A stretch of 64,000 nucleotides of DNA from Eledone cirrhosa. Its lineage: Eukaryota. Positions 676 through 64,000 of the stretch are shown piece by piece; within the stretch, counting starts at the first letter, position 1; each line of letters starts with the position of its first letter. The translations under genes and the position numbers were made by a program. The stretch is from positions 8,308,001 through 8,372,000 of the forward strand of contig OZ024740.1 of NCBI GenBank assembly GCA_964016885.1, in the 5' to 3' direction. Below the pieces are notes generated by a model, which saw only the letters and a program-made list of their open reading frames with translations, did no database searches and was not told the DNA's origin.

Positions 676-1033
676 CAAAATACACCCCGTCCCACCACCA
701 CCACCCCCACCCCATCCACACCACCCCGTCCTATGTAAAGTTATGTTGGTGCCGCGCCATCCGGGCCGAAACAAATGAGATCGTGTAGGTGTCACGACAA
801 AAAAACACACAGTCCACGCTGTAATGTGGCCGTGTAGGCAACACGGTAAAAACCTCCCAGACCCACACTGTAAATGTGGTTGGTGTTAGGAAGGGCATCC
901 AACTGTAGAAAACCTGCCAGACAGTCCTATGCGAGCAAGACAATCACTCTTGCCTCAAGTGGGACTACCCCCGTCCAAACCCATGCAAGCGTGGAACACG
1001 GACGTTAAACGTTGATGATGATGATGATGATGA
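1..1033 (+). mobile_element. RTE-clade LINE, 3' part (runs off the left edge of the window); ORF2 C-terminus, structured 3' UTR and (TGA)7 tail
   Basis: Near-identical to 61304-62473. Encodes ...DSFRYLG...LHGSETW...RRLRWYGHVMR...GRPRKTW, the typical RTE post-RT C-terminus. Ends in a (TGA)n tail at 1013-1033 abutting satellite. Confidence 0.93.
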
Positions 1034-4000
1034 CGTCAGTTTTGATTGCTATATCAGTTTCAATTGGGATGTCAGTTTCGATTGGTATGTCAGTTTCGAT
1101 TGGTTTATCAGTTCCGATTGGTATGTAAGTTTTGATTGGTATGTCAGTTTCGATTGGTATATCTGTTTCGATTGGTATATCAGTTTCTATTGGTATGTCA
1201 GTTTCTATTGGTATGTCAGTTTCTATTGGTATATCAGTTTCGATTGGTATATCAGTTTCCATTGATATATCAGTTTCGAATAGTATGTCAGTTTCTACTG
1301 GTATGTCAGTTTCGATTAGTATATCAGTTTCTATTGGTATGTCAGTTTCGATTGGTATATCAGTTTCGATTTGTATATCAGTTCCTATTGCTATATCAGT
1401 TTCTATTGGTATGTCAGTTTCAATTGGTATGTAAGTTTCGATTGATATATCAGTTTCGATTGGTATGTCAGTTTCGATTGGTATATCAGTTTCGATTGGT
1501 ATGTCAATTTCAATTAGTATATCAGTTTCTATTGGTATATCAGTCTAGATTGGTAGGTCAGTTTCGATTAGTATATCAATCTCTATAGGTATGTCAATTT
1601 CTATTGGTATATCTGTTTCGATTGGTATATCAGTTTCGATTAGTATGTCAGTTTCTATTGGTATGTCAGTTTCTACTAGTATGTCAGTTTCTACTAGTAT
1701 GTCAGTTTCGATTAGTATATCAGTTTCTATTGGTATGTCAGTTTCTATTGGTATATCAGTTTCGATTGGTATATCAGTTTCGATTAGTATGTCAGTTTCT
1801 ATTGGTATGTTAGTTTCGATTAGTATATCAGTTTCTATTGGTATGTCAGTTTCGATCGGTATGTCAGTTCCTATTGATATATCAGTTTCGATTGGTATAT
1901 CAGTTTCGATTGGTATGTCAGTTTCTATTGGTATATCATTTTCTATTGGTATGTCAGTTTTGATTGGTATATCAGTTTCGATTTGTATCTCAGTTTCGAT
2001 TGGTATGTCAGTTTCGATTGGTATATCAGTTCCAATTGGTATGTCAGTTTCGATTGGTATGTCAGTTTCGATTGGTATATCAGTTTCGATTGGTATGTCA
2101 GTTTCGATTGGCATGTCAATTTCAATTGGTATATCAGTTTCTATTGGTATGTCAGTTTCCAGTGGTATGTCAGTTTCTATTGGTATATCAGTGTCGATTG
2201 ATATATCAGTTTCGATTAGTATGTCAGTTTCTACTGGTATGTCAGTTTCGATTAGTATATCAGTTTCTATTGGTATGTCAGTTTCGATAGGTATATCAGT
2301 TTCGATTTGTATATCAGTTCCTATTGCTATATCAGTTTCTATTGGTATGTCTGTTTCAATTGGTATATCAGTTTCTATTGGTATGTCAGTTTCTAATGGT
2401 ATGTCAGTTTCTATTGGTATATCAGCTTCGATTGGTATATCACTTTCGATTAGTATGTCAGTTTCTATTGGTATGTCAGTTTTGATTGGTATATCAGTTT
2501 CAAATGGTATGTCAGTTTCGATTGGTATATCAGTTCCTATTGCTATATCAGTTTCTATTGGTATGTCAGTTTCTATTGGTATGTCAGTTTCAATTGGTAT
2601 GTAAGTTTCGATTGATATATCAGTTTCGATTGGTATGTCAGTTTCGATTGGTATATCAGTTTCGATTGGTATGTCAATTTCAATTTGTATGTCAGTTTCT
2701 ACTGGTATGTCAGTTTCGATTATTATATCAGTTTCTAATGGTATGTCAGTTTCTATTCGTATATCAGATTCGATTGGTATATCACTTTCGATTAGTATGT
2801 CAGTTTCTATTGGTATGTCAGTTTTGATTGGTATATCAGTTTCAATTGGTATGTCAGTTTTGATTGGTATGTCAGTTTCGATTGGTTTATCAGTTCCGAT
2901 TGGTATGTAAGTTTTGATTGGTATGTCAGTTTCGATTGGTATATCAGTTTCGATTGGGATGTCAGTTTCGATTGGTATATCAATTTCTATTTGTATACCG
3001 GTTCCTATTGCTATATCAGTTTCTATTGGTATGTCAGTTTCGATTGGTCTATCAGTTTGGATTGGTATGTCAGTTTCAATTGGTATGTAAGTTTCGATTG
3101 GTATATCAGTTTCGATTGGTATGTCAGTTTCGATTGGTATATCAGTTTCGATTGGTATGTCAATTTCAATTAGTATGTCAGTTTCGATTGGTATATCAGT
3201 TTCTATTGGGATGTCAGTTTCGATTAGTATATCAGTTTCTATTGGTATGTCAGTTTCGATTGGTATATCAATTTCGATTTGTATATCAGTTCCTATTGCT
3301 ATATCAGTTTCGATTGGTATGTCAGTTTCGATTGGTATATCAGTTTCGATTGGTATGTCAATTTCAATTAGTATGTCAGTTTCTATTGGTATATCAGTTG
3401 CAATTGGTATGTCATTTTCGATTAGTATATCAGTTTCTATAGGTATGTCAGTTTCTATTGTTATATCAGTTTCGATTGCCATATCTGTTTCGATGGTATG
3501 TCAGTTTCGATTGGTATATCAGTTTCTATTGGTATATCAGTTTCGATTAATATATCAGTTTCGATTAGTATGTCAGTTTCTACTGGTATGTCAGTTTCGA
3601 TTAGTATATCAGTTTCTATTGGTATGTCAGTTTCGATTGGTATGTCAGTTTCTATTGGTATGTCAGTTTCGATTGGTATGTCAGTTTCTATTGGTATGTC
3701 AATTTCGATTGGTATATAAGTTTAGATTAGTATGTCAGTTTCTATTGGTATATCAGTTTCGATTGGTATATTAGTTTCGATTAGTAAATCAGTTTCTATA
3801 GGTATGTTAGTTTCTATTGGTATATCAGTTTCGACTGGTATATTAGTTTCGATTAGAATGTCAGTTTTGATTGTTATGTCAGTTTCGATTTGCATATCAG
3901 TTCCGATTGGAAAGTCAGTTTCGATTGGTATGTCAGTTTCGATTGGTATATCAGCTTCGATTGGTATATCACTTTCGATTAGTATGTCAGTTTCTATTGG

Positions 4001-7000
4001 TATGTCAGTTTTGATTGGTATATCAGTTTCAATTGGTATGTCAGTTTCGTTTGGTATGTCAGTTTTGATTGGTATGTCAGTTTCGATTGGTATATCAGTT
4101 TCGATTGGTATATCAGTTTCTATTGGTATATCAGTTTCTATTGGTATGTCAGTTTCTATTGGTATATCAGTTTTGATTGGTATATCAGTTTCGATTGATA
4201 TATCACTTTCGAATAGTATGTCAGTTTCTACTGGTATGTCAGTTTCAATTGATATATCAGTTTCTATTGGTATGTCAGTTTCTAATGGTATGTCAGTTTC
4301 TATTGGTATATCAGCTTCGATTGGTATATCACTTTCGATTAGTATGTCAGTTTCTATTGGTATGTCAGTTTTGATTGGTATATCAGTTTCAAATGGTATG
4401 TCAGTTTCGATTGGTATATCAGTTCCTATTGCTATATCAGTTTCTATTGGTATGTCAGTTTCTATTGGTATGTCAGTTTCAATTGGTATGTAAGTTTCGA
4501 TTGATATATCAGTTTCGATTGGTATGTCAGTTTCGATTTGTATATCAGTTTCGATTGGTATGTCAATTTCAATTTGTATGTCAGTTTCTACTGGTATGTC
4601 AGTTTCGATTAGTATATCAGTTTCTAATGGTATGTCAGTTTCTATTGGTATATCAGATTCGATTGGTATATCACTTTCGATTAGTATGTCAGTTTCGATT
4701 GGTATGTCAGTTTTGATTGTTATATCAGTTTCAATTGGTATGTCAGTTTTGATTGGTATGTCAGTTTCGATTGGTTTATCAGTTCCGATCGGTATGTAAG
4801 TTTTGATTGGTATGTCAGTTTCGATTGGTATATCAGTTTCGATTGGGATGTCAGTTTCGATTGGTATATCAATTTCGATTTGTATACCGGTTCCTATTGC
4901 TATATCAGTTTCTATTGGTATGTCAGTTTCAATTGTTATGTAAGTTTCGATTGGTATATCAGTTTCGATTGGTATGTCAGTTTCGATTGGTATATCAGTT
5001 TCGATTGGTATGTCAATTTCAATTAGTATGTCAGTTTCGATTGGTATATCCGTTTCTATTGGGATGTCAGTTTCGATTAGTATATCAATTTCTATTGGTA
5101 TGTCAGTTTCGATTGGTATATCAATTTCGACTTGTATATCAGTTCCTATTGCTATATCAGTTTCGATTGGTATGTCAGTTTCGATTGGTATATCAGTTTC
5201 GATTGGTATGTCAATTTCAATTAGTATGTCAGTTTCTATTGATATATCAGTTTCGATTGGTATGTCATTTTCGATTAGTATATCAGTTTCTATAGGTATG
5301 TCAGTTTCTATTGTTATATCAGTTTCGATTGCCAAATCTGTTTCGATGGTATGTCAGTTTTGATTGGTATATCAGTTTCAATTGGTATGTCATTTTCCTT
5401 TGGTATGTCAGTTTTGATTGGTATGTCAGTTTCGATTGGTATATCAGTTTCGATTGGTATATCAGTTTCTATTGGTATATCAGTTTCTATTGGTATGTCA
5501 GTTTCTATTGGTATATCAGTTTTGATTGGTATATCAGTTTCGATTGATATATCACTTTCGAATAGTATGTCAGTTTCTACTGGTATGTCAGTTTCAATTG
5601 ATATATCAGTTTCTATTGGTATGTCAGTTTCTAATGGTATGTCAGTTTCTATTGGTATATCAGCTTCGATTGGTATATCACTTTCGATTAGTATGTCAGT
5701 TTCTATTGGTATGTCAGTTTTGATTGGTATATCAGTTTCAAATGGTATGTCAGTTTCGATTGGTATATCAGTTCCTATTGCTATATCAGTTTCTATTGGT
5801 ATGTCAGTTTCTATTGGTATGTCAGTTTCAATTGGTATGTAAGTTTCGATTGATATATCAGTTTCGATTGGTATGTCAGTTTCGATTTGTATATCAGTTT
5901 CGATTGGTATGTCAATTTCAATTTGTATGTCAGTTTCTACTGGTATGTCAGTTTCGATTAGTATATCAGTTTCTAATGGTATGTCAGTTTCTATTGGTAT
6001 AGCAGATTCGATTGGTATATCACTTTCGATTAGTATGTCAGTTTCGATTGGTATGTCAGTTTTGATTGTTATATCAGTTTCAATTGGTATGTCAGTTTTG
6101 ATTGGTATGTCAGTTTCGATTGGTTTATCAGTTCCGATTGGTATGTAAGTTTTGATTGGTATGTCAGTTTCGATTGGTATATCAGTTTCGATTGGGATGT
6201 CAGTTTCGATTGGTATATCAATTTCGATTTGTATACCGGTTCCTATTGCTATATCAGTTTCTATTGGTATGTCAGTTTCAATTGTTATGTAAGTTTCGAT
6301 TGGTATATCAGTTTCGATTGGTATGTCAGTTTCGATTGGTATATCAGTTTCGATTGGTATGTCAATTTCAATTAGTATGTCAGTTTCGATTGGTATATCC
6401 GTTTCTATTGGGATGTCAGTTTCGATTAGTATATCAATTTCTATTGGTATGTCAGTTTCGATTGGTATATCAATTTCGACTTGTATATCAGTTCCTATTG
6501 CTATATCAGTTTCGATTGGTATGTCAGTTTCGATTGGTATATCAATTTCGATTGGTATGTCAATTTCAATTAGTATGTCAGTTTCTATTGATATATCAGT
6601 TTCGATTGGTATGTCATTTTCGATTAGTATATCAGTTTCTATAGGTATGTCAGTTTCTATTGTTATATCAGTTTCGATTGCCAAATCTGTTTCGATGGTA
6701 TGTCAGTTTCGATTGGTATATCAGTTTCTATTGGTATATCAGTTTCGATTAATATATCACTTTCGATTAGTATGTCAGTTTCTACTGGTATGTCAGTTTC
6801 GATTAGTATATCAGTTTCTATTGATATGTCAGTTTCGATTGGTATGTCAGTTTCTATTGGTATGTCAGTTTCGATTGGTATGTCAGTTTCTATTGGTATG
6901 TCAATTTCGATTGGTATATAAGTTTAGATTAGTATGTCAGTTTCTATTGGTATATCAGTTTCGATTGGTATATTAGTTTCGATTAGTAAATCAGTTTCTA

Positions 7001-10000
7001 TAGGTATGTTAGTTTCTATTGGTATATCAGTTTCGACTGGTATATTAGTTTTTCGATTAGAATGTCAGTTTTGATCGTTATGTCAGTTTCGATTTGCATA
7101 TCAGTTCCGATTGGAAAGTCAGTTTCGATTGGTATGTCAGTTTCGATTGGTATATCAGTTTCGATTTGTATATCAGTTCCTATTGCTATATCAGTTTCTA
7201 TTGGTATGTCAGTTTCAATTGGTATATCAGTTTCTATTGGTATGTCAGTTTCTAATGGTATGTCAGTTTCTATTGGTATATCAGCTTCGATTGGTATATC
7301 ACTTTCGATTAGTATGTCAGTTTCTATTGGTATGTCAGTTTTGATTGGTATATCAGTTTCAATTGGTGTGTCAGTTTCTATTGCTATGTCAGTTTTGATT
7401 GGTATGTCAGTTTCGATTGGTATATCAGTTTCGATTGGTATATCAGTTTCTATTGGTATATCAGTTTCTATTGGTATGTCAGTTTCTATTGGTATATCAG
7501 TTTCGATTGGTATATCAGTTTCGATTCATATATCACTTTCGAATAGTATGTCAGTTTCTACTGGTATGTCAGTTCCGATTAGTATATCAGTTTCTATTGG
7601 TATGTCAGTTTCGATTGGTATATCAGTTTCGATTTGTATATCAGTTCCTATTGCTATATCAGCTTCTATTGGTATGTCAGTTTCTATTGGTATGTCAGTT
7701 TCAATTTGTATGTAAGTTTCGATTGATATATCAGTTTCGACTGGTATGTCAGTTTCGATTGGTATATCAGTTTCGATTGGTATGTCAATTTCAATTAGTA
7801 TATCAGTTTCTATTGGTATATCAGTTTCGATTGGTATGTCAGTTTCGATTAGTATATCAGTTTCTATAGGTATGTCAATTTCTATTGGTATATCTGTTTC
7901 GATTGGTATATCAGTTTCTATTGGTATATCAGTTTCGATTGATATATCAGTTTCTATTGGTATGTCAGTATCTATTGGTATGTCAGTTTCTATTGGTATA
8001 TCAGTTTCGATTGATATATCAGTTTCGATTGATATATCAGTTTCAAATAGTATGTCAGTTTCTACTGGTATGTCAGTTTCGATTAGTATATCAGTTTCTA
8101 TTGGTATGTCAGTTTCTAATGGTATGTCAGTTTCTATTGGTATATCAGCTTCGATTGGTATATCACTTTCGATTAGTATGTCAGTTTCTATTTGTACGTC
8201 AGTTTTGATTGCTATATCAGTTTCAATTGGTATGTCAGTTTTGATTGGTATGTCAGTTTCGATTGGTATATCAGTTTCGATTGGTATATCAGTTTCTATT
8301 GGTATGTCAGTTTCTATTGGTATGTCAGTTTCTATTGGTATATCAGTTTCGATTGGTATATCAGTTTCAATTGATATATCAGTTTCGAATAGTATGTCAG
8401 TTTCTACTGGTATGTCAGTTTCGATTGGTATATCAGTTTCGATTTGTATATCAGTTCCTATTGCTATATCAGTTTCTATTGGTATGTCAGTTTCAATTGG
8501 TATATCAGTTTCGATTGATATATCACTTTCGAATAGTATGTCAGTTTCTACTGGTATGTCAGTTTCAATTGGTATATCAGTTTCTATTGGTATGTCAGTT
8601 TCTAATGGTATGTCAGTTTCTATTGGTATATCAGCTTCGATTGGTATATCACTTTCGATTAGTATGTCAGTTTCTATTGGTATGTCAGTTTTGATTGGTA
8701 TATCAGTTTCAAATGGTATGTCAGTTTCGATTGGTATATCAGTTCCTATTGCTATATCAGTTTCTATTGGTATGTCAGTTTCTATTGGTATGTCAGTTTC
8801 AATTGGTATGTAAGTTTCGATTGATATATCAGTTTCGATTGGTATGTCAGTTTCGACTGGTATATCAGTTTCGATTGGTATGTCAATTTCAATTTGTATG
8901 TCAGTTTCTACTGGTATGTCAGTTTCGATTAGTATATCAGTTTCTAATGGTATGTCAGTTTCTATTGGTATATCAGATTCGATTGGTATATCTCTTTCGA
9001 TTAGTATGTCAGTTTCTATTGGTATGTCAGTTTTGATTGGTATATCAGTTTCAATTGGTATGTCAGTTTTGATTGGTATGTCAGTTTCGATTGGTTTATC
9101 AGTTCCGATTGGTATGTAAGTTTTGATTGGTATGTCAGTTTCGATTGGTATATCAGTTTCGAATGGTATGTCAGTTTCGATTGGTATATCAGTTTCGATT
9201 GGTATATCAATTTCGATTTGTATACCGGTTCCTATTGCTATATCAGTTTCTATTGGTATGTCAGTTTCAATTGGTATGTAAGTTTTGATTGGTATATCAG
9301 TTTCGATTGGTATGTCAGTTTCGATTGGTATATCAGTTTCGATTGGTATGTCAATTTCAATTAGTATGTCAGTTTCGATTGGTATATCAGTTTCTATTGG
9401 GATGTCAGTTTCGATTAGTATATCAGTTTCTATTGGTATGTCAGTTTCGATTGGTATATCAATTTCGATTTGTATATCAGTTCCTATTGCTATATCAGTT
9501 TCGATTGGTATGTCAGTTTCGATTGGTATATCAGTTTCGATTGGTATGTCAATTTCAATTAGTATGTCAGTTTCTATTGGTATATCAGTTTCGATTGGTA
9601 TGTCATTTTCGATTAGTATATCAGTTTCTATAGGTATGTCAGTTTCTATTGTTATATCAGTTTCGATTGCCAAATCTGTTTCGATGGTATGTCAGTTTCG
9701 ATTGGTATGTCAGTTTCTATTGGTATATCAGTTTCTATTGGTATATCAGTTTCGATTAATATATCAGTTTCGATTAGTATGTCAGTTTCTACTGGTATGT
9801 CAGTTTCGATTAGTACATCAGTTTCTATTGGTATGTCAGTTTCGATTGGTATGTCAGTTTCTATTGGTATGTCAGTTTCGATTGGTATGTCAATTTCGAT
9901 TGGTATATAAGTTTAGATTAGTATGTCAGTTTCTATTGGTATATCAGTTTCGATTGGTATATTAGTTTCGATTAGTAAATCAGTTTCTATAGGTATGTTA

Positions 10001-13000: not shown

Positions 13001-13086
13001 TATCAGTTTCGATTTGTATGTCAGTTTCTACTGGTATGTCAGTTTCGATTATTATATCAGTTTCTATTGGTATGTCAGTTTCTATC
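1034..13086. repeat. 18-bp satellite array, heterogeneous domain with irregular 1.3-3 kb higher-order units
   Basis: Tandem TCAGTTTCKATTGGTATR monomers. A diagnostic 17-bp deletion monomer (TCTGTTTCGATGGTATG) recurs near 3485, 5338, 6687, 9676 and 11349. Confidence 0.98.
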
Positions 13087-13247
13087 GGAACTCAGCACAA
13101 GATGAAAGTTTCAGTCTGTGTGATGATGGGCAGATCTGGAGGTTTGTCAAGGCTGGTGAAACGTGGAAGAGAGATACCAGCTGGTCTGAGTGTGATCTAC
13201 CCACAATAACTGGCAATGTAAAAACTGCTACAACTCTGGGAAACTAA
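13087..13247 (+). pseudogene. Probable C-terminal remnant of CR1 ORF1 (…NSAQDESFSLCDDGQIWRF…TTLGN*)
   Basis: Non-satellite open frame from the insertion junction to TAA at 13245-13247, overlapping the ORF2 frame. Its position matches an ORF1 end; no recognisable domain is visible. Confidence 0.55.
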
Positions 13248-16069
13248 ACCAGAACAACCTGCCACCCTCTACACACCATCATAAACTGCGAGCAGGGTAC
13301 AAATTGTTGTCCTTAAATGCTCGCAGTTTATGCAACAAGATACATCTGTTCGAATCCTACGTCAGAAGCATCGACCCTGACTTCATCACAGTCACGGAAA
13401 CATGGGCACATTCCTTACTCTGTGATGGGGTTTTCACCATTACTGGGTACAACCTTTTCCGCAAGGACCGCATTAACCGCCGTGGTGGTGGTGTGATGGT
13501 CTACGTTCGTTCAAACTTTTCGGTAATTCCTTGCGTTGATTTGAACGAATCACAGGAAGAAGTTTTTTTCTGTGACATACGTATGACCATGTCAACACTT
13601 CTGCTTGGTGTTGTTTATCGCCCCCCAAACTACCATCAGGACACACAGCTTTGCGATATCCTCAGAGTTGCTGCCAAGGAAACAGCCACTTATGTGTTTA
13701 TTGCAGGTGACTTCAATCATCCTGAGATCGATTGGGAAACCTTTCGTTGGCCACAGGGTGCAAACGATTTCCTTGAACTAGTGCTGGACTCAAACTGGTC
13801 ACATGTAGTCACCTCTCCAACAAGAGGTGACAACACTTTGGACCTGATCTTCACCACTACTCCTGAAGTGGTTATCAGTTGTACTACTGAGGAACCTCTA
13901 GGCGACTCTGATCATGCTATGATCATTGCCAATCTGGTACTTGAGGGCAGCAACAAAAACCAGGGCCATCTCCAATCTGCTTGCTTTGATTGGAAGAGGG
14001 CGGATTGGAACTTGTACTGCACTGAGCTACAGCGCCCAAACTGGCATGAGATGTATAACTCTGGAGATGTGAACTCTATACTCCAGAACATCCTGGACTC
14101 AATATGGATAGCATGTGCAGCATCAGTGCCACGGAAGCGGAAAAATAACCACCCCAAAAGTGCAATCTGGGAAACTTCAGCGGTCCGACTTGCCAGGAAA
14201 GAACGTCGGAACGCTGAACGGGAATATAAACTGCATAGATCAGATGCCAACTAAAAAAAGCGGAATAAATCTTCTAACCATCTCAAGCAAGTGACAAAGA
14301 AGGCAGTGCTTGAATTTGAACAGTGCATCGCAACCAATCCTGACAGTAAGGTGTTCTGGAAATATGTTCATTCAAAGCAGAGACCTCACTCTCCAGTTGG
14401 TCCTCTTCGCAATCCCCACACAAGCCAGATCACTGACGATCCCAAGGAATGCGCAGAACTCATTGCTGAGTGCTATGCAAGTATTTTTACTGTTGAAAAC
14501 CAGAATGTACCATCTCCACCATCTCTAACATCAAATTCCATAACAACTATGGAATTTACACCTGCAATGTTGCGACGTCACCTTAAGAATAAGCGCAACT
14601 ATGCCTCCCCTGGTCTTGATGGTGTGACATACCTGCTTCTCAAACGTGGCGGGGATTTCCTTTTGCGCCAGCTTTCTTTTTTCTTTCAATACTGTCTCAG
14701 CAATGGTGCTACTCCGGAGCAGTGGAAAACTGCCAGTGTCATTCCCCTGTTCAAAAAGGGCAACCGCATGTCACCTGTCAACTATCGTCCAGTCAGTCTT
14801 ACTAGCTGTATGGCCAAACTGATGGAATCCTGTGTCAGAGAAACACTTTGGAACTTCTGGAGCTCTCACAGCCTCATCCGGCCCTCACAGTTTGGATTTA
14901 TCCCTAACTCCAGCTGCTGTGATCAGCTTATCGAGTTCCTTGAGGACATCACCCGGATCACTGACAGCGGCTCATGGGTGGATGTTGTTTACCTTGACTT
15001 TGCTAAGGCTTTTAATTCTGTGCCACACAAAAGACTTATGGCAAAACTCTCTGTAATGGGTGTGAGGGATGATCTTTTCGACTGGCTGAAATCCTTCATT
15101 CTCAGCCGAAAGGAAGTAGTCACGGTTCTAGGACAGCATTCTTCACCATATGAGATGTCATCTGGTGTACCACAGGGATCTGTTCTTGGTCCTCTTTTGT
15201 TTGTGGCATATATTAATGACATAGATTCCAACTTACAGAATGCCACGGTACTAAAATATGCAGATGACATCAAGCTGTACCTTGAAATCAAAAGGACTGA
15301 TACTGAAATTTACAACTCTTTCCAACAATCAGACCTGGACACAATGCAGCAATGGATCACAGACTGGCAACTGAAGCTGGCTGTGGACAAGTGTACCACC
15401 ATGCATTTTGGAAGGAAAAATCCAGCGTCGACATACTCCCTCCACAACACTGACATCAAAAAGTCCTCTTGTGAACGTGACCTGGGCATTACTGTCAGCA
15501 ACGATTTGCGTTGGACAAAGCATGTCTCTAAGATTGTCAAGAAGGCCGAGGGTGTCTTGGCATCACTCAGCAAGACCTTTGTTAGCCGCTCTCCAGCCAT
15601 CTATTTAAAACTGTATACAGCTATGGTGCGACCACACTTGGAATTCGCATCATCAGTCTGGAACCCCTATCTTGCTCGGAACATTGACCTCGTGGAAACT
15701 GTTCAGAGACGTGCAACCAAGCGCATACCCTCCATCAGACACCTACCATACTCTGAACGCCTTGCTTCCCTGGGCATGGATTCATTGAAGCTCCGACGTC
15801 TGGCAATGGACTTGGTGAATACCCACAAAGTTTTTAACCATCTCGCCAACTGCAACCCTGAGCGCCTCTTTGATCTCCATGTGTCTAACACACATGGACA
15901 TGCCTACAAGATAAGAAAACAGCACAGCTCCCATGACTTTCGCAGACATTTTTTCACGCTCAGAGTTGCTGAAGCATGGAACAAACTGCCTGCGTCAATT
16001 GTTAGCTGCCGAGACACTGCATCCTTTAAGACACTCATGCTTCCCGAAATACGCCAAAAATACACCTGA
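13238..16069 (+). pseudogene. CR1 ORF2 (endonuclease + reverse transcriptase) with one in-frame premature stop
   Basis: Track ORFs 13304..14254 and 14291..16069 are in the same frame, separated only by TAA at 14252-14254 (…AAC TAA AAA AAG CGG…). The RT motif reads AFNSV where AFDSV is usual. Confidence 0.9.
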
Positions 16070-16102
16070 TGTACCCCTTCCATACACATGCACACATGTG
16101 TG

Positions 16103-16366
16103 TATCATGACTCGTGCACTGTTCATTTTACTGATGTTTGTGCATTGCACTATGTACTGTACATGTACTTTTTTTGATGAGTTGTGGTGCACCTGGGCAC
16201 TGTACACAATATTTCATTATTGTTATTGTTATTATATCATGACTCATACACTGTTTATTTTCCTGACATTTGTACATTATTCTATGTACTATACATGCAC
16301 CTTTGATGAGTTGTAGTGCACCTGAGCACTGTACACAATAATTTCATTATTATTATTATTATTATT
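16103..16366 (+). repeat. Tandem duplication (~132 bp) of the CR1 3' terminus, each copy with its own hairpin and ATT-type tail
   Basis: TATCATGACTC…GTGCACCTGRGCACTGTACACAATA…TTTCATTATT starts at 16103 and again at 16235. Confidence 0.9.
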
Positions 16367-25300: not shown

Positions 25301-26432
25301 CATTTTCTATTGGTATATCAGCTTCGATTGGTATATCACTTTCGATTAGTACGTCAGTTTCTATTGGTATGTCAGTTTTGATTGGTATATCAGTTTCAAT
25401 TGGTATGTCAGTTTCGATTGTTATGTCAGTTTCGATTGGTTAATCAGTTCCGATTGGTATATCAGTTTCGATGGGTATGTCTGTTTCGATTGGTATATCA
25501 GTTTCCACTGGTACGTCAGTTTCGATTGGTATGTCATTTTCAATTAGTATATTAGTTTCTATTGGTATATCAGTTTCGATTGGTATATCAGTTTCGATTA
25601 GTATATCAGTTTCTATAGGTATGTCAATTTCTATTGGTATGTCTGTTTCGATTGGTATATCAGTTTCTATTGTTATATCAGTTTCAATTGATATATCAGT
25701 TTCGATTAGTATGTCAGTTTCTACTGGTATGTCAGTTTCGATTAGGATATCAGTTTCTATTGGTATGTCAGTTTCTATTGGTATATCAGTTTCGATTGGT
25801 ATATCAGTTTCCATTGGTATATCAGTTTCGATTGGTATATCAGTTTCGGTTGGCATGTCAGTTTCAATTGGTATATCAGTTTCGATTGGTATGTCAGTTT
25901 CGATTGGAATATCAGTTTCGACTGGTATGTCAGTTTCGATTGGTATGTCAGTTTCTATTGGTATGTCAGTTTCCATTGGTATGTCAGTTTCGATTGGTTT
26001 ATCAGTTCCGATTGGTATGTAAGTTTTGATGTGTATGTCTGTTTCGATTGGTATATCAGTTTTGATTGGTATATCAGTTTCTATTGGTATGTCAGTTTCC
26101 ATTGGTATGTCAGTTTCTATTGGTATACCAGTTTCGATTGGTATATCAGTTTCGATTGATATATCAGTTTCGAATAGTATGTTAGTTTCTACTGGTATGT
26201 CAGTTTCGATTAGTATATCAGTTTCTATTTGTATGTCAGTTTCGATTGGTATATCAGTTTCGATTTGTATATCAGTTCCTATTGCTATATCAGTTTCTAT
26301 TGGTATGTCAGATTCAATTGGTATGTAAGTTTCGATTGTCATATCAGTTTCTATAGGTATGTCAATTTCTATTGGTATATCAGTATCGAATTTTATATCA
26401 GTTCCTATTGCTATATCAGTTTCTATCGGTAT
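16367..26432. repeat. 18-bp satellite array with 1872/2214/1512-bp higher-order units
   Basis: Matching track ORFs recur at 18016, 19888 and 22102 (spacings 1872 = 104 monomers and 2214 = 123 monomers) and at 23506/25018 (1512 = 84 monomers). Confidence 0.96.
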
Positions 26433-26778
26433 GGAGGCACATGGCTTAGTGGTTAGAGCATTGGCCTTGCAATCGAAAGGTTGTGAGTTCAATTCTCAGA
26501 CCGGGTGATGTGTTGTTTCCTTGAGCAAGACACTTTATTTCACATTGCTCCAGTTTACTCAGCTGTAGAAATGAGATGATAGGGACTGAGGTCTTTATCA
26601 TTCCACTGTAAAGTGGTCGTGCAGGTGCCACGGCAAAAAAGCACCCAGCACTCACTGTAAATGAGGTTGGTGTTAGGAAGGGCATCCAGCTGTAGAAATC
26701 GAGCCAGCATCAGTTCCCGTCCTACCCTTGCAAGCAGGGAAAAAGTGGACGTAAAATGAAATGATGATGATGATGATG
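26433..26778 (+). mobile_element. tRNA-derived CORE-type SINE with RTE-derived 3' tail and (TGA)n end
   Basis: Pol III A box TGGCTTAGTGG (26442-26452) and B box AGTTCAATTCT (26486-26496). The central CCTTGAGCAAGACACTT…CAGTTTACTCAGCTGTAGAAATG resembles the CORE domain. The 3' part shares CACTGTAAATG-GGTTGGTGTTAGGAAGGGCATCCA-CTGTAGAAA with the RTE 3' UTR. Confidence 0.92.
26442..26496 (+). promoter_or_regulatory. Internal RNA polymerase III promoter (A and B boxes) of the SINE
   Basis: TGGCnnAGTGG and GTTCRAnnC-type boxes with tRNA-like spacing. Confidence 0.8.
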
Positions 26779-29700
26779 ATATCAGTTTCTATTGGTATGT
26801 CAGTTTTGATTGGTATATCAGTTTCGATTGGTATGTCAGTTTCGATTGGTATGTCAGTTTCGATTGGTATATCAGTTCGGATTGGTATGTCAGTTTCGAT
26901 TGGTATGTCAGTTTCGATTGGTATATCAGTTTCGATTGGTATGTCAGTTTCGATTGGTATGTCAATTTCGATTGGTATATCAGTTTCTATTGGTATGTCA
27001 GTTTCGAGTGGTATGTCAGTTTCTATTGGTATATCAGTTTCGATTGATATATCAGTTTCGATTAGTATGTCAGTTTCTACTGGTATGTCAGTTTCGATTA
27101 GTATATCAGTTTCTAATGGTATGTCAGTTTCTATTGGTATATCAGATTCGATTGGTATATCACTTTCGATTAGTATGTCAGTTTCTATTGGTATGTCAGT
27201 TTCGATTGCTTTATCAGTTCCGATTGGTATGTAAGTTTTGATTGGTATGTCAGTATCGATTGGTATATCAGTTTCGATTGGGATGTCAGTTTCGATTAGT
27301 ATATCAGTTTCTATTGGTATGTCAGTTTCGATTGGTATATCACTTTCGATTTGTACATCAGTTTCTATTGCTATATCAGTTTCTATTGGTATGTCAGTTT
27401 CAATTGGTATGAACGTTTCGATTGGTATATCAGTTTCGATTGGTATGTCAGTTTCGATTGGTATATCATTTTCGATTGGTATGTCAATTTCAATTAGTTT
27501 GTCAGTTTCTATTGGTATATCAGTTTCGATTGGTATGTCAGTTTCGATTAGTATATCAGTTTCTATATGTATGTCAGATTCTATTGTTATATCAGTTTCG
27601 ATTGGTATATCAGTTTCGATTAATATATCAGTTTCGATTACTATGTCAGTTTCTACTAGTATGTCAGTTTCGATTAGTATATCAGTTTCTATTGGTATGT
27701 CAGTTTCGATTGGTATGTCAGTTTCTATTGGTATGTCAGTTTCGATTGGTATGTCAGTTTCTATTGGTATGTCAATTTCGATTGGTATATAAGTTTAGAT
27801 TAGTATGTCAGTTTCTATTGGTATATCAGTTTCGATTGGTATATTAGTTTCGACTAGTATATCAGTTTCTATAGGTATGTTAGTTTCTATTAGTATATCA
27901 GTTTCGACTGGTATATCAGTTTCGATTAGAATGTCAGTTTCGATTTTTATGTCAGTTTCGATTTGTATATCAGTTCCGATTGGTATGTCAGTTTCTATTG
28001 GTATGTCAGTTTCGATTGGTATATCAGTTTCGATTTGTATATCAGTTCCTATTGGTATGTCAGTTTCTATTGGTATGTCAGTTTCGATTTGTATATCAGT
28101 TCCGATTCGTATATCAGTTTCTATTGGTATGTCAGTTTCAATTGGTATGTAAGTTTCGATTGTCATATCAGGTTCTATTGGTATGTCAGTTTCAATTGGT
28201 ATATCAGTTTCGATTGGTATGTCATTTTCAATTAGTATATCAGTTTCTATTGGTATGTCAGTTTCTATTGGTATATCACGTCCGATTGGTATGTCAATTT
28301 CGATTGGTATATCAGTTTCTATTGGTATGTCAGTTTCGATTGGTATGTCAGTTTCTATTGGTATATCAGTTTCGATTGATATATCAGTTTCGATTAGTAT
28401 ATCAGTTTCTACTGGTATGTCAGTTTCGATTAGTATATCAGTTTCTATTGGTATGTCAGTTTCGATTGGTATATCAGTTTCGATTCGTATATCAGTTCCT
28501 ATTGCTATATCAGTTTCTATTGGTATGTCATTTCCAATTGGTATGTAAGTTTCGATTGATTTATCAGTTTCGATTGGTATGTCAGTTTCTATTGGTATAT
28601 CAGTTTCTATTGGTATGTCAGTTTCGATTGATATATCAGTTTCGAATAGTATGTCAGTTTCTACTGGTATGTCAGTTTCGATTAGTATATCAGTTTCTAT
28701 TGGTATGTCAGTTTCGATTGGTATATCAGTTTCGATTTGTATATCAGTTCCTATTGCTATATCAGTTTCTATTGGTATGTCAGTTTCAATTGGTATGTAA
28801 GTTTCGATTGTCATATCAGTTTCTATAGGTATGTCAATTTCTATTGGTATATCTGTTTCTATTTGTATATCAGTTTCTATTGTTATATCAGTTTCGATTG
28901 GTATATCAGTTTCGATTGGTATATCAGTTTCGATTGGTATATCAGTTTCGGTTGGTATGTCAGTTTCAATTGGTATATCAGTTTCTATTGGTATGTCAGT
29001 TTTGATTGTTATATCAGTTTCGATTGGTATGTCAGTTTCGATTGGTATGTCAGTTTCGATTGGTATATCAGTTCGGATTGGTATGTCAGTTTCGATTGGT
29101 ATGTCAGTTTCGATTGGTATATCAGTTTCGATTGGTATGTCAGTTTCGATTGGTATGTCAATTTCGATTGGTATATCAGTTTCTATTGGTATGTCAGTTT
29201 CGAGTGGTATGTCAGTTTCTATTGGTATATCAGTTTCGATTGATATATCAGTTTCGATTAGTATGTCAGTTTCTACTGGTATGTCAGTTTCGATTAGTAT
29301 ATCAGTTTCTAATGGTATGTCAGTTTCTATTGGTATATCAGATTCGATTGGTATATCACTTTCGATTAGTATGTAAGTTTTGATTGGTATGTCAGTTTCG
29401 ATTGGTATATCAGTTTCGATTGGGAAGTCAGTTTCGATTAGTATATCAGTTTCTATTGGTATGTCAGTTTCGATTGGTATATCACTTTCGATTTGTATAT
29501 CAGTTTCTATTGCTATATCAGTTTCTATTGGTATGTCAGTTTCAATTGGTATGAACGTTTCGATTGGTATATCAGTTTCGATTGGTATGTCACTTTCGAT
29601 TGGTATATCATTTTCGATTGGTATGTCAATTTCAATTAGTTTGTCAGTTTCTATTGGTATATCAGTTTCGATTGGTATGTCAGTTTCGATTAGTATATCA

Positions 29701-46741: not shown

Positions 46742-46992
46742 GATCGTGTAGGTGTCACGACAAAAAACACACAGTCCACGCTGTAATGTGGCCGTGTAGG
46801 CAACACGGTAAAAACCTCCCAGACCCACACTGTAAATGTGGTTGGTGTTAGGAAGGGCATCCAACTGTAGAAAACCTGCCAGACAGTCCTATGCGAGCAA
46901 GACAATCACTCTTGCCTCAAGTGGGACTACCCCCGTCCAAACCCATGCAAGCGTGGAACACGGACGTTAAACGCTGATGATGATGATGATGA
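46742..46992 (+). mobile_element. Severely 5'-truncated RTE copy (3' UTR plus (TGA)6 tail only)
   Basis: Nearly identical to ~779-1030; visible differences are an A-run length and one substitution before the tail. It adds exactly 251 bp to one HOR unit (2555 vs 2304). Confidence 0.95.
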
Positions 46993-55900: not shown

Positions 55901-58163
55901 TATATCAGTTTCTATTCGTATGTCAGTTTCTATTGGTATATCAGTTTCGATTGGTATATCAGTTTCGATTGGTATATCAGTTTCGATTGGTATATCAGTT
56001 TCGGTTGGTATGTCAGTTTCAATTGGTATATCAGTTTCTATTGGTATGTCAGTTTTGATTGGTATATCAGTTTCGATTGGTATGTCAGTTTCGATTGGTA
56101 TGTCAGTTTCGATTGGTATATCAGTTCGGATTGGTATGTCAGTTTCGATTGGTATGTCAGTTTCGATTGGTATATCAGTTTCGATTGGTATGTCAGTTTC
56201 GATTGGTATGTCAATTTCGATTGGTATATCAGTTTCTATTGGTATGTCAGTTTCGAGTGGTATGTCAGTTTCTATTGGTATATCAGTTTCGATTGATATA
56301 TCAGTTTCGATTAGTATGTCAGTTTCTACTGGTATGTCAGTTTCGATTAGTATATCAGTTTCTAATGGTATGTCAGTTTCTATTGGTATATCAGATTCGA
56401 TTGGTATATCACTTTCGATTAGTATGTCAGTTTCTATTGGTATGTCAGTTTCGATTGCTTTTTCAGTTCCGATTGGTATGTAAGTTTTGATTGGTATGTC
56501 AGTTTCGATTGGTATATCAGTTTCGATTGGGATGTCAGTTTCGATTAGTATATCAGTTTCTATTGGTATGTCAGTTTCGATTGGTATATCACTTTCGATT
56601 TGTATATCAGTTTCTATTGCTATATCAGTTTCTATTGGTATGTCAGTTTCAATTGGTATGAACGTTTCGATTGGTATATCAGTTTCGATTGGTATGTCAG
56701 TTTCGATTGGTATATCATTTTCGATTGGTATGTCAATTTCAATTAGTTTGTCAGTTTCTATTGGTATATCAGTTTCGATTGGTATGTCAGTTTCGATTAG
56801 TATATCAGTTTCTATATGTATGTCAGTTTCTATTGTTATATCAGTTTCGATTGGTATATCAGTTTCGATTAATATATCAGTTTCGATTACTATGTCAGTT
56901 TCTACTAGTATGTCAGTTTCGATTAGTATATCAGTTTCTATTTGTATGTCAGTTTCGATTGGTATGTCAGTTTCTATTGGTATGTCAGTTTCGATTGGTA
57001 TGTCAGTTTCTATTGGTATGTCAATTTCGATTGGTATATAAGTTTAGATTAGTATGTCAGTTTCTATTGGTATATCAGTTTCGATTGGTATATTAGTTTC
57101 GACTAGTATATCAGTTTCTATAGGTATGTTAGTTTCTATTAGTATATCAGTTTCGACTGGTATATCAGTTTCGATTAGAATGTCAGTTTCGATTGTTATG
57201 TCAGTTTCGATTCGTATATCAGTTCCGATTGGTATGTCAGTTTCTATTGGTATGTCAGTTTCGATTGGTATATCAGTTTCGATTTGTATATCAGTTCCTA
57301 TTGCTATGTCAGTTTCTATTGGTATGTCAGTTTCGATTTGTATATCAGTTCCAATTGGTATATCAGTTTCTATTGGTATGTCAGTTTCAATTGGTATGTA
57401 AGTTTCGATTGTCATATCAGGTTCTATTGGTATGTCAGTTTCAATTGGTATATCAGTTTCGATTGGTATGTCATTTTCAATTAGTATATCAGTTTCTATT
57501 GGTATGTCAGTTTCTATTGGTATATCACGTCCGATTGGTATGTCAATTTCGATTGGTATATCAGTTTCTATTGGTATGTCAGTTTCGATTGGTATGTCAG
57601 TTTCTATTGGTATATCAGTTTCGATTGATATATCAGTTTCGATTAGTATATCAGTTTCTACTGGTATGTCAGTTTCGATTAGTATATCAGTTTCTATTGG
57701 TATGTCAGTTTCGATTGGTATATCAGTTTCGATTCGTATATTAGTTCCTATTGCTATATCAGTTTCTATTGGTATGTCAGTTTCAACTGGTATGTAAGTT
57801 TCGATTGGTTTATCAGTTTCGATTGGTATGTCAGTTTCTATTGGTATATCAGTTTCTATTGGTATGTCAGTTTCGAGTGGTATGTCAGTTTCTATTGGTA
57901 TGTCAGTTTAAATTGGTATGTAAGTTTCGATTGTCATATCAGTTTCTATAGGTATGTCAATTTCTATCGGTATATCAGTTTCTATTGTTATATCAGTTTC
58001 GATTGATATATCAGTTTCGATTAGTATGTCAGTTTCTACTGGTATGTCAGTTTCGATTAGTATATTAGTTTCTATTGGTATGTCAGTTTCTATTGGTATA
58101 TCAGTTTCGATTGGTATATCAGTTTCGATTGGTATATCAGTTTCGATTGGTATATCAGTTTCG
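46993..58163. repeat. 18-bp satellite, homogeneous 2304-bp (128-mer) higher-order repeat
   Basis: Equivalent track ORF ends at 47828, 50132, 52436, 54740 and 57044, each 2304 bp apart. Confidence 0.97.
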
Positions 58164-58205
58164 GTTTTTCTGGGATGGCTGTTCCCTTCGGTATAAAGTA
58201 ACGTT

Positions 58206-58587
58206 CAAATTTTTCTCGATTCTTCTCTCCATTCGAACCCATTTATTCAATCACTTCTATGTCCTAATTTCACACTATATCATATTTTCACCATTCTATA
58301 TCATATCTTTTCTCTAAAAATCATATTTTCCCTATCACCGCATTTTCTCTATCGTAATTTCTTAAACAAAACAAATCTTGTATTTTCGTTTATTGTTAAA
58401 TTATGCCCAATTTTTTCTCGATTCTTCTCTCCATTCGAACCCATTCATTCAATCACTACTATGTCCTAATTTCACACTATATCGTATTTTCTCTAAAAAT
58501 CATATTTTCCCTATCACCGCATTTTCTCTATCGTATTTTCTTAAACAAAACAAATCTTGTATTTTCGTTTATTGTTAAATTATGCCC
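58206..58587 (+). repeat. Two tandem ~200/180-bp direct repeats in the RTE 5' UTR
   Basis: CAA(A/T)TTTTTCTCGATTCTTCTCTCCATTCGAACCC…TTGTTAAATTATGCC starts at 58206 and at 58408; the second copy lacks ~22 bp. Confidence 0.92.
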
Positions 58588-58730
58588 AAAATACGGCGAT
58601 CTTATCTTAAACCTTACATTCTCGCTAACAACCCATCATCCCTCCCTCCCGCCCCCACGCACCACCATTATTACGTGGACCAATCATAAGTCAGAGGCCC
58701 ATACTATCGCTTAACTGGTTGCTTTTCGAT

Positions 58731-58949
58731 ATGATGGATGGACTACAGAATTCTGGAGAGTTGAAGAGAGAAAAATGTGGACGCTCAGCGACAATGCCAA
58801 AGATAAAGCCAAATTCACCTCGTGGACGAGAATGCAAGCACTCCTCCTTGTTTCGGCCCAGGATGGCTAACATAACCCCCCCCCCCCCCCCGCGCCCCAC
58901 CGCTCCCACCCTCCAAACGCAATCCAAAACTTCAGAGTTGGTACCATGA
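58731..58949 (+). CDS. Short basic/Pro-rich upstream ORF of the RTE (or the out-of-frame N-terminus of ORF2)
   Basis: ATG at 58731. It crosses a C16 run (58876-58891), and its TGA overlaps the ATG at 58946 (ATGA). Confidence 0.45.
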   Translation: MMDGLQNSGELKREKCGRSATMPKIKPNSPRGRECKHSSLFRPRMANITPPPPPRPTAPTLQTQSKTSELVP

Positions 58950-61900
58950 ATGTAGGTACCTTAAAGGGTCGCTCTAACGAGGTTGTAGAAATGCTTGAAC
59001 GTAAGGAGGTCGATGTTTGTTGTATTCAAGAGACCAGGTGGAGGGGAGGGTCGGCTAGATTCATCGTGGGTAAAGAACGATGCTATAAGCTTTTCTGGGT
59101 GGGAAATGACAATGGGTTGGGTGGGGTAGGAATCATGGTAGCAGAAAAGTGGGCAGATAAGATAATAGACGTAAATAGAGTGAACGACAGAATAATTAAA
59201 ATAAGACTTGTCCTCAATAAAACTACGGTGACAGTAATATCTGCGTACGCACCCCAATCCGGACTGCCCCGCGCTATAAAAGACAAATTCTACGAGACAC
59301 TGATGCTCGCTACCTCCCAAATAACCGACAGTGACTATATAGTTATTGCAGGCGACCTAAATGGTCACGTTGGACAACATTGTGACGGCTATGACGGAAT
59401 CCATGGAGGCTATGGGTTCGGTACTAGAAATGAGGAAGGCTCCAGAATCCTGGAATTCTGCGACGCAAATAACTTAACTATCTGTAACACTAACTTCAAA
59501 AAACGAGACAATCACTTGATCACCTATAGATCGGGGGAACACACAAGCCAGGTAGATTATATCCTTACCAGAAGACGTGACAGAGTGTCTGTTGTTAACA
59601 CTAAATCCCACCCCCATGAAGAATTCACCTCCCAACATAGACTGATAATTAGCGACCTCATAGTCAGGACGAGACGTACTAGACAGCGGAAGAGGACTAT
59701 CCTCAGGAGAAAAATATGGAAGCTAAAGGACCCCATAGCCAGAAATAAATTTCAAAGCATATTACTTGACGCTTTCGACAGTAAGGAAGAGCAATTAGAG
59801 TCGTATAATATAGAGGAACAGTGGGAATTCCTGAGAGCAAACCTGCTGACGGCAGCAGACGAAGTCTGTGGCTGGAGCAGGCCTGTAGGTAGGAGGAGAG
59901 TAACATGGTGGTGGAACAGTAAGGTGGAGGAGTCAATTAAGGCCAAAAAGCAGGCTTGGAAAGTATGGCGGGATGGGGGAAGTAGAGAAGACTATCAAGT
60001 GGCCAGGAGGGAAGCTAGGAGACAAGTGTACTTCGCAAGAAGGGAAGCAGAGGAAAGAAAGTTCAAGCATGTTCTACAACGTGAGGACCAAAAACGTGAG
60101 GTGTTCAGGATTGCCAGGCAATGTGTCAAGGAAAACCGTGATATTGTCGGGGAGAAGTGTGTACTTAACGATGATGGCATACTTGCCATCACCGACGCTG
60201 ATAAGAAGGTAGCTTGGAAGTGTCACTACGAAAGGCTTCTAAATGAGGAGAACAAATGGGAGAAAGACAGTCTCCCCCAGATCGATCCAATAGAGGGACC
60301 AGCAGTGTTAGTTGAAGGTAGTATAATAAGTAAGGCAATCAAAGATATGAAGACGGGTAAGGCGGCTGGGCCTTCGGAAATAGTTGCTGAGATGCTGAAG
60401 GCATCTGGTTCGGTGGGACACACCATGGTCACCCGGATAGTTAACCAAGTCGTACAGAATGGGGTTGTTCCGAAGGAATGGCGTAGCAGCATCATCGTTA
60501 ACTGCTATAAGGGAAAAGGAGATGCCCTAGATAGGAGTAACTATAGAGGCATTAAATTAATCGACCAGGTCATGAAGGTCACGGAAAAAGTAATAGCGCA
60601 ACTAATCAGAGAGAGAATTGATCTAGATGAAATGCAGTTCGGGTTTGTGTCAGGCAAAAGTACCACAGACGCTCTTTTCATTGTACGACAACTACAGGAG
60701 AAGTACCTAGCTAAAAGTAAACCCCTATACTTAGCTTTCGTCGACTTGGAGAAAGCCTTCGACAGAGTCCCCCGTTCCATTATCTGGTGGTCTCTTAGAA
60801 AACTAGGTGTTGACGAATGGCTTGTGAGAGCTATACAAGCCATGTATAAAGAAACAGTCAGTAAGGTTAGAATTAACAACGAATATAGTGAAGAGTTTAG
60901 CGTAAAAGTTGGTGTCCATCAGGGCTCTGTTCTTAGCCCCCTACTATTTATTATTGCCCTTCAGGCTATAACAGAGGAGTTCAAGACCGGCTGCCCATGG
61001 GAACTCCTATACGCAGATGATCTAACGCTCATAGCTGAATCAATGACCGAACTAGAGAAGAAATTCCAAACGTGGAAGCACGGCCTAGAATCAAAAGGCC
61101 TTAAAATTAACCTGGCTAAGACTAAAGTTCTAGTTTGTAGGAAAGAAAATAAGGCGGCGGTCCCATCGGGGAAATGGCCATGCTCAGTGTGTAGGAAAGG
61201 CGTAGGTAGAAACTCCATTTTATGTCCCAAATGCAAAGTATGGGTGCATAAAAGATGTAGTGGGATCACAGGTAAGCTAACTAAGAACATAGATTTTACA
61301 TGTGGCCGGTGCTCTGGTGCAATAAGTAGCAGCAAGTGCCCACAAAATACTAGCTCCTTCAACTGCGCAGAGGGTTCTATAGAAATAGTGGACAGCTTCC
61401 GTTATCTGGGTGACAAAATCAGCAGTGGGGGAGGGTGCTCTGAAAGTACAGTAGCTAGAGTCAGAACTGGATGGAAAAAGTTCAGAGAGCTTATACCACT
61501 ATTAGCCGCTAGAGGTTCTCCCTAAAAATGAAAGGCAGGTTATACGATGCCTGCATACGAACAGCAATGCTGCATGGCAGTGAGACCTGGGCATTGTGTG
61601 CAGAGGATATACGCAGACTAGAGAGGAACGAAGCTTGCATGCTCCGCTGGATGTGCAATAGTAATATACGTGAACGGCAAAGCATAAACGAACTAAGGAA
61701 AAAATTAGAAATAAGAGGGATCAGATGTTGTTTACTCGAGAGAAGGCTACGTTGGTACGGTCACGTGATGCGCATGAAAGACGACAGCTGTATAACAAAG
61801 TGCAGGGCAATAAAGATAGACGGTAGCCACGGAGTAGGCAGACCCAGAAAAACATGGGACGAGCTGATAAATTCCGACCTCACACGCCTACACCTCTCCA

Positions 61901-61965
61901 AGACAATGTCACTGGACCGAGACTTTTGGTGGTACTCAGTAATAGAGAAGACCCGCCTTACCTAA
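58946..61965 (+). pseudogene. RTE ORF2 (APE endonuclease, reverse transcriptase with PHD-type insertion), one 1-bp frameshift near 61514
   Basis: Track ORFs 58946..61525 and 61528..61965. The intact copy reads AAA GGG TTC TCC CTA (KGFSL); this copy reads AGAGGTTCTCCCTA, one base shorter. Confidence 0.92.
61181..61312 (+). other. C4HC3 (PHD-type) zinc finger coding segment inside RTE ORF2
   Basis: CSVC-x10-CPKC-KVWV-H-KR-C-x14-CGRC, i.e. C-x2-C-x10-C-x2-C-x4-H-x2-C-x14-C-x2-C with the W-x-H signature. Confidence 0.85.
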
Positions 61966-62133
61966 ATACAAAGTAAAAACCTACTACAGTCAGTAGGCAT
62001 CTCTATCAAAACACACCCCCGTCCCACCACCTCCACCCCACCCACACCGGCCCTTTCAATGTAAAGTTATGTTGGTCCCACAACATCCAGGCCGAAACAA
62101 ATGAGATCGTGTAGGTGTCACGATAAAAAACAC

Positions 62134-62365
62134 ACAGTCCACGCTGTAAATGTGGCCGTGTAGGCAACACGGTAAAAACCTCCCAGCCCCACACTGTAAA
62201 TGTGGTTGGTGTTAGGAAGGGCATCCAGCTGTAGAAAACCCGCCAGACAGTCCACGCTGTAATGTGGCCGTGTAGGCAACACGGTAAAAACCTCCCATCC
62301 CCACACTGTAAATGTGGTTGGTGTTAGGAAGGGCATCCAACTGTAGAAAACCCGCCAGACAGTCC
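62134..62365 (+). repeat. 113/112-bp tandem duplication in the RTE 3' UTR bounded by ACAGTCC
   Basis: Units 62134-62246 and 62247-62358; ACAGTCC at 62134, 62247 and 62359. The other RTE tails have a single unit. Confidence 0.93.
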
Positions 62366-62473
62366 TATGCGAGCAAGACAACCACTCTTGCCTCAAGTGG
62401 GAAAACCCCCGTCCAAACCCATGCAAGCGTGGAACACGGACGCTAAACCTGATGATGATGATGATGATGATGA

Positions 62474-64000
62474 TATCAGTTTCGATTGGTATGTCAGTTT
62501 CGATTGGTATATCAGTTTCGATTGGTATGTCAATTTCAATTAGTATATCAGTTTCTATTGTTATATCAGTTTCGATTGGTATGTCAGTTTCGATTAGTAT
62601 ATCAGTTTCTTTAGGTATGTCAATTTCTATTGGTATATCTGTTTCGATTGGTATATCAGTTTCTATTGGTATATCAGTTTCCATTGACATATCAGTTTCG
62701 ATTAGTATGTCAGTTTCTACTGGTATGTCAGTTTCGATTAGTATATCAGTTTCTATTGGTGTGTCAGTTTCTATTGGTATATCAGTTTCGATTGGTATAT
62801 CAGTTTCGATTAGTATGTCAGTTTCTATTGGTATGTTAGTTTGGATTAGTATATCAGTTTCTATGGGTATATCAGTTTCGATTGGTATGTCAGTTTCAAT
62901 TGGTATATCAGTTTCTATTGGTATGTCAGTTTTGATTGGTATATCAGTTTCGATTGGTATGTCAGTTTCGATTGGTATGTCAGTTTCGATTGGTATATCA
63001 GTTCCGATTGGTATGTCAGTTTCGATTGGTATGTCAGTTTCGATTGGTATTTCAGTTTCGATTGGTATGTCAGTTTCGATTGGTATGTCAATTTCGATTG
63101 GTATATCAGTTTCTATTGGTATGTCAGTTTCGAGTGGTATGTCAGTTTCTATTGGTATATCAGTTTTGATTGATATATCAGTTTCGATTAGTATGTCAGT
63201 TTCTACTGGTATGTCAGTTTCGATTAGTATATCAGTTTCTAATGGTATGTCAGTTTCTATTAGTATATCAGATTCGATTGGTATATCACTTTCGATTAGT
63301 ATGTCAGTTTCTATTGGTATATCAGTTTCGATTGGTATGTCAGTTTCGATTAGTATATCAGTTTCTATAGGTATGTCAGTTTCTATTGTTATATCAGTTT
63401 CGATTGGTATATAAGTTTAGATTAGTATGTCAGTTTCTATTGGTATATCAGTTTCGATTGGTATATTAGTTTCGATTAGTATATCAGTTTCTATAGGTAT
63501 GTTAGTTTCTATTGGTATATCAGTTTCGACTGGTATATCAGTTTGGATTAGTATGTCAGTTTCGATTGTTATGTCAGTTTCGATTTGTATATCAGTTCCG
63601 ATTGGTATGTCAGTCTCGATTGGTATGTCAGTTTCGATTGGTATATCAGTTTTGATTGGTATGTCAGTTTCAATTGGTATGTCAATTTCGATTGGTATAT
63701 CAGTTTCTATAGGTATGTCAGTTTCGATTAGTATATCAATTTCTATTGGTATGTCAGTTTCGATTAGTATATCAGTTTCTATTGGTATGTCAGTTTCTAT
63801 TGGTATATCAGCTTCGATTGGTATATCAGTTTCGATTAGTATGTCAGTTTCTAATGGTATGTCAGTTTTGATTATTATATCAGTTTATATTGGTATATCA
63901 GTTTCAATTGGTATCTCAGTTTCTATTGTTATATCAGTTTCTATTGGTATGTCAGTTTCGATAGTTATGTCAGTTTCCATTGGTATATCAGTTTCGATTG
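62474..64000. repeat. 18-bp satellite array, heterogeneous type, continues beyond the window
   Basis: Same monomer. The variant order right after the LINE resembles ~1445-1620 and ~12785-12960 rather than the 2304-bp HOR. Confidence 0.97.

Follow-up and report, generated by a model that had tools for sequence, protein, structure and literature searches.

Why should retroelements of different kinds, each ending in a (TGA)n run, rejoin an 18-bp satellite at one and the same base? The question is raised by a window of 64,000 nucleotides (the whole stretch of DNA analysed here), which lies at C1:8,308,001-8,372,000 in a 3.0-Gb assembly and belongs to a satellite array that starts at about C1:7.23 Mb and extends at least to 9.59 Mb, where junctions are still found. 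Dimer counts put the satellite at about 2.1 Mb genome-wide, and between about 43 and 57 kb of the window it shows a higher-order period of 2,304 bp. Five insertions interrupt it in the window, four with (TGA)n ends and one with (ATT)n:

1 to 1033, + strand: 3' part of an RTE-like LINE of family A, 5'-truncated, about 1.25 kb, of which the first 230 bp or so precede the window; C-terminus of the ORF at 1-675, then the 3' UTR and a (TGA)7 tail at 1013-1033
1034 to 64000, + strand: 18-bp satellite TCAGTTTCKATTGGTATR, part of the array from near C1:7.23 Mb to at least 9.59 Mb
13087 to 16366, + strand: LINE with APE endonuclease and RT and an (ATT)n tail, unrelated to family A; joins the satellite at ATT|GGT and serves as an internal control
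26433 to 26779, + strand: SINE with a tRNA head, an RTE-like 3' end and a (TGA)6 tail
46742 to 46992, + strand: short, 5'-truncated copy of family A
58167 to 62473, + strand: near full-length LINE of family A, 4.3 kb, with a (TGA)8 tail at 62450-62473

The original prediction, made from the window alone, was that all (TGA)n-tailed insertions return to the satellite at the same base and strand. The four runs and their junctions are indeed present at 1013-1033 (TGA|CGTCAG), 26762-26779 (TGA|TATCAG), 46975-46992 (TGA|TGTCAA) and 62450-62473 (TGA|TATCAG), and the last AT of each tail overlies the AT of GGT-AT-R. The four thus share one base, but the fifth insertion, which had been passed over, joins elsewhere. 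A 98.5% identical copy of this (ATT)n LINE at C1:8847939-8853160 joins at TAT|ATC, each copy with 3 nt of tail homology; because the two differ in phase, their family is not phase-locked (n = 2). We take this element to be CR1/Jockey-like.

In the 4.3-kb LINE one ORF, at 58871-61965 and interrupted by a single frame break near 61520, encodes an APE endonuclease, an RT and a PHD finger. Family A displays the features by which the RTE clade is recognized, namely one long ORF with an N-terminal APE endonuclease and RT, and a microsatellite tail, (GAT)n; from architecture and motifs we assume that both it and a second family, B, which is 75% identical to A and equally common in the array, belong to that clade. 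Relatives are frequent at 42–54% identity, many of them with APE, RT and PHD domains; intact ones measure about 1,030–1,100 amino acids, and several have this 3' end in common, with GAT, GTT or TG tails. Metagenome relatives, inspected at 30 of 79 loci, are represented by one collapsed copy each. The PHD finger sits right behind the RT (residues 771–814; window 59,000-61,500) and is found again in many relatives, whose identity is about 50%. Direct comparison of the sequences shows that the SINE shares with the LINE a 3' UTR block and the terminal motif, while its head (26442-26499) matches the Rfam tRNA model with an E value of 0.001 and 28.1 bits, slightly below the 29-bit cut-off, and ARAGORN called no tRNA gene there. 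The 5' UTR of family A contains a duplication of about 190 bp (58200-58590) and its 3' UTR a 112-bp unit present once or twice (62134-62365), part of which is also found in the SINE.

A census of 1.464 Mb of contiguous array (C1:7608001-9072000, about 60% of the array span) returned 87 interruptions, of which 82 belong to A, B and the SINE, the families with (GAT)n tails, and 5 are other elements that were left out of the junction count. Two satellite blocks in this sample are inverted, at C1:7890979-7893748 (2.8 kb) and 8068435-8079114 (10.7 kb), and the first of them lies between an unrelated insert of 1.95 kb and the 5' end of a LINE copy. Grouping copies by a common 5' junction reduced the 82 copies to 64 events, 60 of which lie in the predicted register (binomial p ~2e-70 against 2 of 36 positions); for three of these the position was assigned by eye, the script having slid there, and merging three pairs with a common 3' flank gives a cautious count of 57 in 61. 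The tabulation by phase and orientation is therefore far from uniform, and the AT of GGT-AT-R stands as a fixed site in the monomer. The in-register events divide into 52 forward and 8 reversed, so that the predicted restriction to the + strand is true of the window and fails array-wide; the four remaining events comprise one at GAT|TGG, one shifted by a single base, one elsewhere and one tailless. All eight reversed events use the same AT as the forward ones, on its complement; this AT forms the middle of the quasi-palindrome GT-AT-RT / AY-AT-AC. Genome-wide pattern matching found 60 forward junctions with in-register spacing, every one in this array. Of reversed junctions it found 17 within the array, each of the form GAT|A(C/G), besides 2 unrelated matches on other contigs.

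Homology between tail and target is insufficient on its own to produce this register, as had been argued from the window. At the AT site that is used, the tail matches 2–3 nt, and other homologies are plentiful: GAT occurs in 28,763 monomers, opposite-strand TGAT in 27,908 and opposite-strand TGA in 26,524, and these sites received one, zero and zero of the 64 events. At the other end of the insertions, 5' junctions fall +1 to +6 from the AT in 36 of 59 cases (p 1e-5; the automated boundaries include chance matches). Exact empty-site comparisons for three insertions gave deletions of 2 and 3 bp and a duplication of 1 bp; for the insertion at 46742-46992, 10 exact empty-site copies in the array indicate a 1-bp duplication or a blunt insertion at GGT^ATGTCAA. 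This pattern fits target-primed reverse transcription with a second cut nearby, at about the spacing of roughly 5 bp that the available text of PMC4760211 describes for ZfL2-1. Junctions alone cannot fully part the nick from tail pairing.

The same motif is joined outside the array. In a sample confined to C1, taken mainly from the first 2 Mb and including a few copies from a second satellite, LINE 3' junctions read AT-R-Y in 48 of 66 cases (against a background of 27% RY dinucleotides) and ATAT in 37; all 66 can be read as beginning with A, partly by construction. Flanks of alternating purines and pyrimidines were found downstream in 31 of 66 and upstream in 54 of 106, where the background is 8%. 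An unrelated 42-mer array was entered at T^ATAG and C^ATAA, two Y^ATR steps, in about three events. Since the motif joined outside is this same one, mostly within (AT)n, the 18-mer appears to have been entered at its only miniature (AT)n. In the 42-bp satellite (C1 ~39.998-40.03 Mb), a truncated copy of family B forms part of a larger unit and has been amplified with it about 11 times.

We consider it probable (about 0.75) that two dispersed LINE families and a SINE join the satellite at one AT per 18 bp through a general Y^ATRY preference of the endonuclease, a single AT being used in each unit likely because the monomer holds a single palindromic Y^ATRY step. The phase lock would then likely be a general target preference made visible, not a satellite-specific system. 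The endonuclease is predicted to nick the bottom strand immediately 5' to the AT, in top-strand reading, at Y^ATRY steps genome-wide; the (GAU)n tail of the RNA would pair over 2–3 nt and prime reverse transcription, and the second strand would be cut a few bases off. A TTT at -11 to -9 may set the favoured orientation, a step that has been partly tested, and array duplication would later copy some insertions (82 copies from 64 events). The predicted fixed nick combined with short tail pairing is likely right. With 36 possible positions and about 100,000 repeats, the array amounts to a natural target-site assay, and it parts endonuclease preference from tail pairing better than dispersed (AT)n copies do, in that Y^ATRY beats longer homologies.

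The closest known systems are the RTE LINEs and SINEs with a Tn-TA target signature, known from plant RTEs and Bov-B and from the SINEs that go with them (PMC6007223, PMC13295347). As far as the available text of these sources describes them (Au SINEs, Bov-B, Sauria SINE), they resemble our families in having a single APE and RT ORF, a microsatellite tail, a partner SINE with a common 3' end and a target that starts from T^A with 1–3 nt of tail overlap, and the favoured satellite site has its TTT at -11 to -9. Our families differ in their strong preference for (AT)n or alternating purine-pyrimidine DNA, a T stretch that is weak genome-wide, duplications of a few bases or small deletions, and a PHD finger behind the RT. 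The 18-bp unit offers a precise substrate for the Tn-TA model of RTE integration, and the result points to an RTE lineage with an (AT)n preference and a PHD finger. APE LINEs that target microsatellites are also known, among them Waldo, Mino, Kibi, Koshi and Dong (PMC3812793), whose preference for simple repeats is likewise thought to be set by the endonuclease; the target here is loose and (AT)n-like and the copies run to tens of thousands, and the parts of that source available to us name neither an RTE element nor a LINE directed at (AT)n. Like the site-specific LINEs R1, Tx1, TRAS and SART, our families hold a fixed position in the repeat unit, yet they use both orientations and are not confined to the target repeat. 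The target pattern is absent from the available text of PMC5786205, PMC13708176, PMC9115989, PMC11203168 and PMC2887409, and the literature covered, which includes few subscription journals, describes no (AT)n-preferring RTE and no phase-locked independent LINE insertions in a satellite; given this limited coverage, the negative is weak evidence of novelty.

The ratio of forward to reversed in-register events, 52:8 (p 5e-9), most likely reflects a second sequence determinant. Position -1 of the forward site is T and position +1 is A, with a TTT at -11 to -9 that the reverse site lacks; accordingly read, the 52 forward targets start at T^AT and the 8 reversed ones at Y^AT. Two simpler sources were rejected: a preference for T over C at +4, where the 42:6 seen outside the array equals availability (5.2:1 in the background), and strict nicking at TpA, since C stands upstream in about half of the reversed events. 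The TTT of the forward site, in the manner of the Tn-TA signature, is the most likely cause of the bias, on partial testing: at 10–12 nt upstream of the SINE genome-wide, TTT outnumbers AAA 1603:815, a comparison that lacks a distance control and would involve at most about a tenth of SINEs. The bias may possibly come instead from chromosome context, that is from the direction of replication forks or transcription over the array, though we think this doubtful. In its favour, the T-stretch signal is weak outside the array, where 106 upstream flanks show no local T excess (TTT 12 against AAA 8 at -16 to -7, and 23 against 12 at -36 to -27), and the outside junctions have no T-over-C preference at +4 beyond availability. 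The genome-wide TTT excess weighs on the other side, as do two copies that lie inside inverted satellite blocks or at their edge and whose orientation follows the satellite strand and not the chromosome strand; with n = 2, and since they may predate the inversions or post-date them, these weakly favour a sequence cause.

Density bears on a different addition, in which the motif fixes the phase and the LINE protein is also drawn to array chromatin, for example through its PHD finger, making the array a preferred sink. Copies were counted genome-wide as exact-pattern anchors for each family, giving 18,077 (A), 12,240 (B) and 17,161 (SINE), with 30, 30 and 9 respectively in the 1.464 Mb examined; by extrapolation, about 0.2% of copies lie in an array that makes up about 0.07% of the genome. 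After de-duplication, density in the array is 2.9 times (A), 4.0 times (B) and 0.7 times (SINE) the genome mean, and 1.9, 1.8 and 1.0 times that of the distal 7.2 Mb of C1 (p 0.002 and 0.005 for the LINEs). RYATRY sites are merely 1.3 times as dense in the array as in the background, so the motif alone fails to account for the LINE excess. Of the array as a landing pad, all that remains is a LINE excess of 2–4 times; the SINE shows no enrichment. An attraction to chromatin would draw on this excess, on the recurrence of the PHD finger and on the similarly young age of array and outside copies (among exact-anchor copies no age difference was found), but the SINE is presumably cargo of the same protein, about 99.8% of copies lie outside the array, and weaker selection on long insertions in gene-free DNA would also predict an excess confined to LINEs; we hold it to be unlikely. 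More speculative still, and improbable in our view, is a scheme in which a PHD-bearing RTE lineage would read a split site, TTT-N8-T^ATR, together with heterochromatin; the satellite, offering a site every 18 bp, would be its preferred sink, and in-register, co-oriented insertions would seed recombination that keeps the satellite in phase. The homology-seed part of this scheme was suggested by copies that share one junction but not the other.

Could the register have been inherited instead of repeatedly chosen, a few founder insertions having been spread and trimmed by recombination within the array? A 5' junction in common with another copy was found for 18 of the 82 copies, three further pairs have a common 108-nt 3' flank where 0.4 pairs are expected, and bioRxiv 10.64898/2026.09.17.752431, in its available text, reports the same pattern for LINEs in a bird centromere, with same-strand satellite copies derived from one insertion. 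The centrophilic transposons described there also resemble our case in their Mb-scale satellite, their mostly shared orientation and the copying of some by recombination; they differ in that our events are mostly independent, with an enrichment of 2–4 times, in an array known from sequence alone and not as a centromere. Against a founder origin, three families and both orientations are involved, the 3' flanks of events differ by a median of 17 mismatches in 108, the same as random array positions, the R at the junctions is A or G in a ratio of 33:29 against 27,908:26,524 in the array, and three insertions have exact empty sites. Founder spread, which we regard as very improbable, is on this sequence evidence refuted as the main cause and would account for roughly one copy in four at most; the four window insertions are correspondingly best read as the separate events originally proposed, descent from one insertion by array recombination not being borne out. 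A strict satellite-targeting LINE/SINE system, as originally predicted, has just as little probability and is refuted by the genome-wide counts, barring an array-specific subfamily that the anchors fail to separate: 60 of 64 phase-locked events with a strong strand bias speak for it, but only 69 of 47,478 exact anchors lie in the 1.464 Mb of array, and the identical motif is used outside it.

Recombination has nonetheless probably touched individual copies. In two cases of a shared 5' junction the 3' flanks of the partners differ, and the window SINE at 26433 is one of them: its 5' junction, a 67-bp flank and its 5' part match two SINE copies that lie a little upstream of the window, while its body and 3' flank differ. 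Because the 5' junction and flank are shared, only its 3' end counts as independent, and the copy is likely a recombinant, or converted, between in-register copies. A mobile SINE with a satellite leader was rejected as the source of the shared flank; genome-wide the junction occurs three times, always inside one 45-kb section of this array. The LINE at 58167-62473 has a left flank resembling the 2,304-bp higher-order repeat type and a right flank that matches the array type found at 7736 and 12792 of the window, and these unlike flanks suggest that the satellite was rearranged at or near it. Across C1:7608001-9072000, the 5' truncation points of several independent copies coincide to within a few bases (for example at about 1,026, 2,050, 2,300 and 370 nt), which hints at truncation hot spots or conversion.
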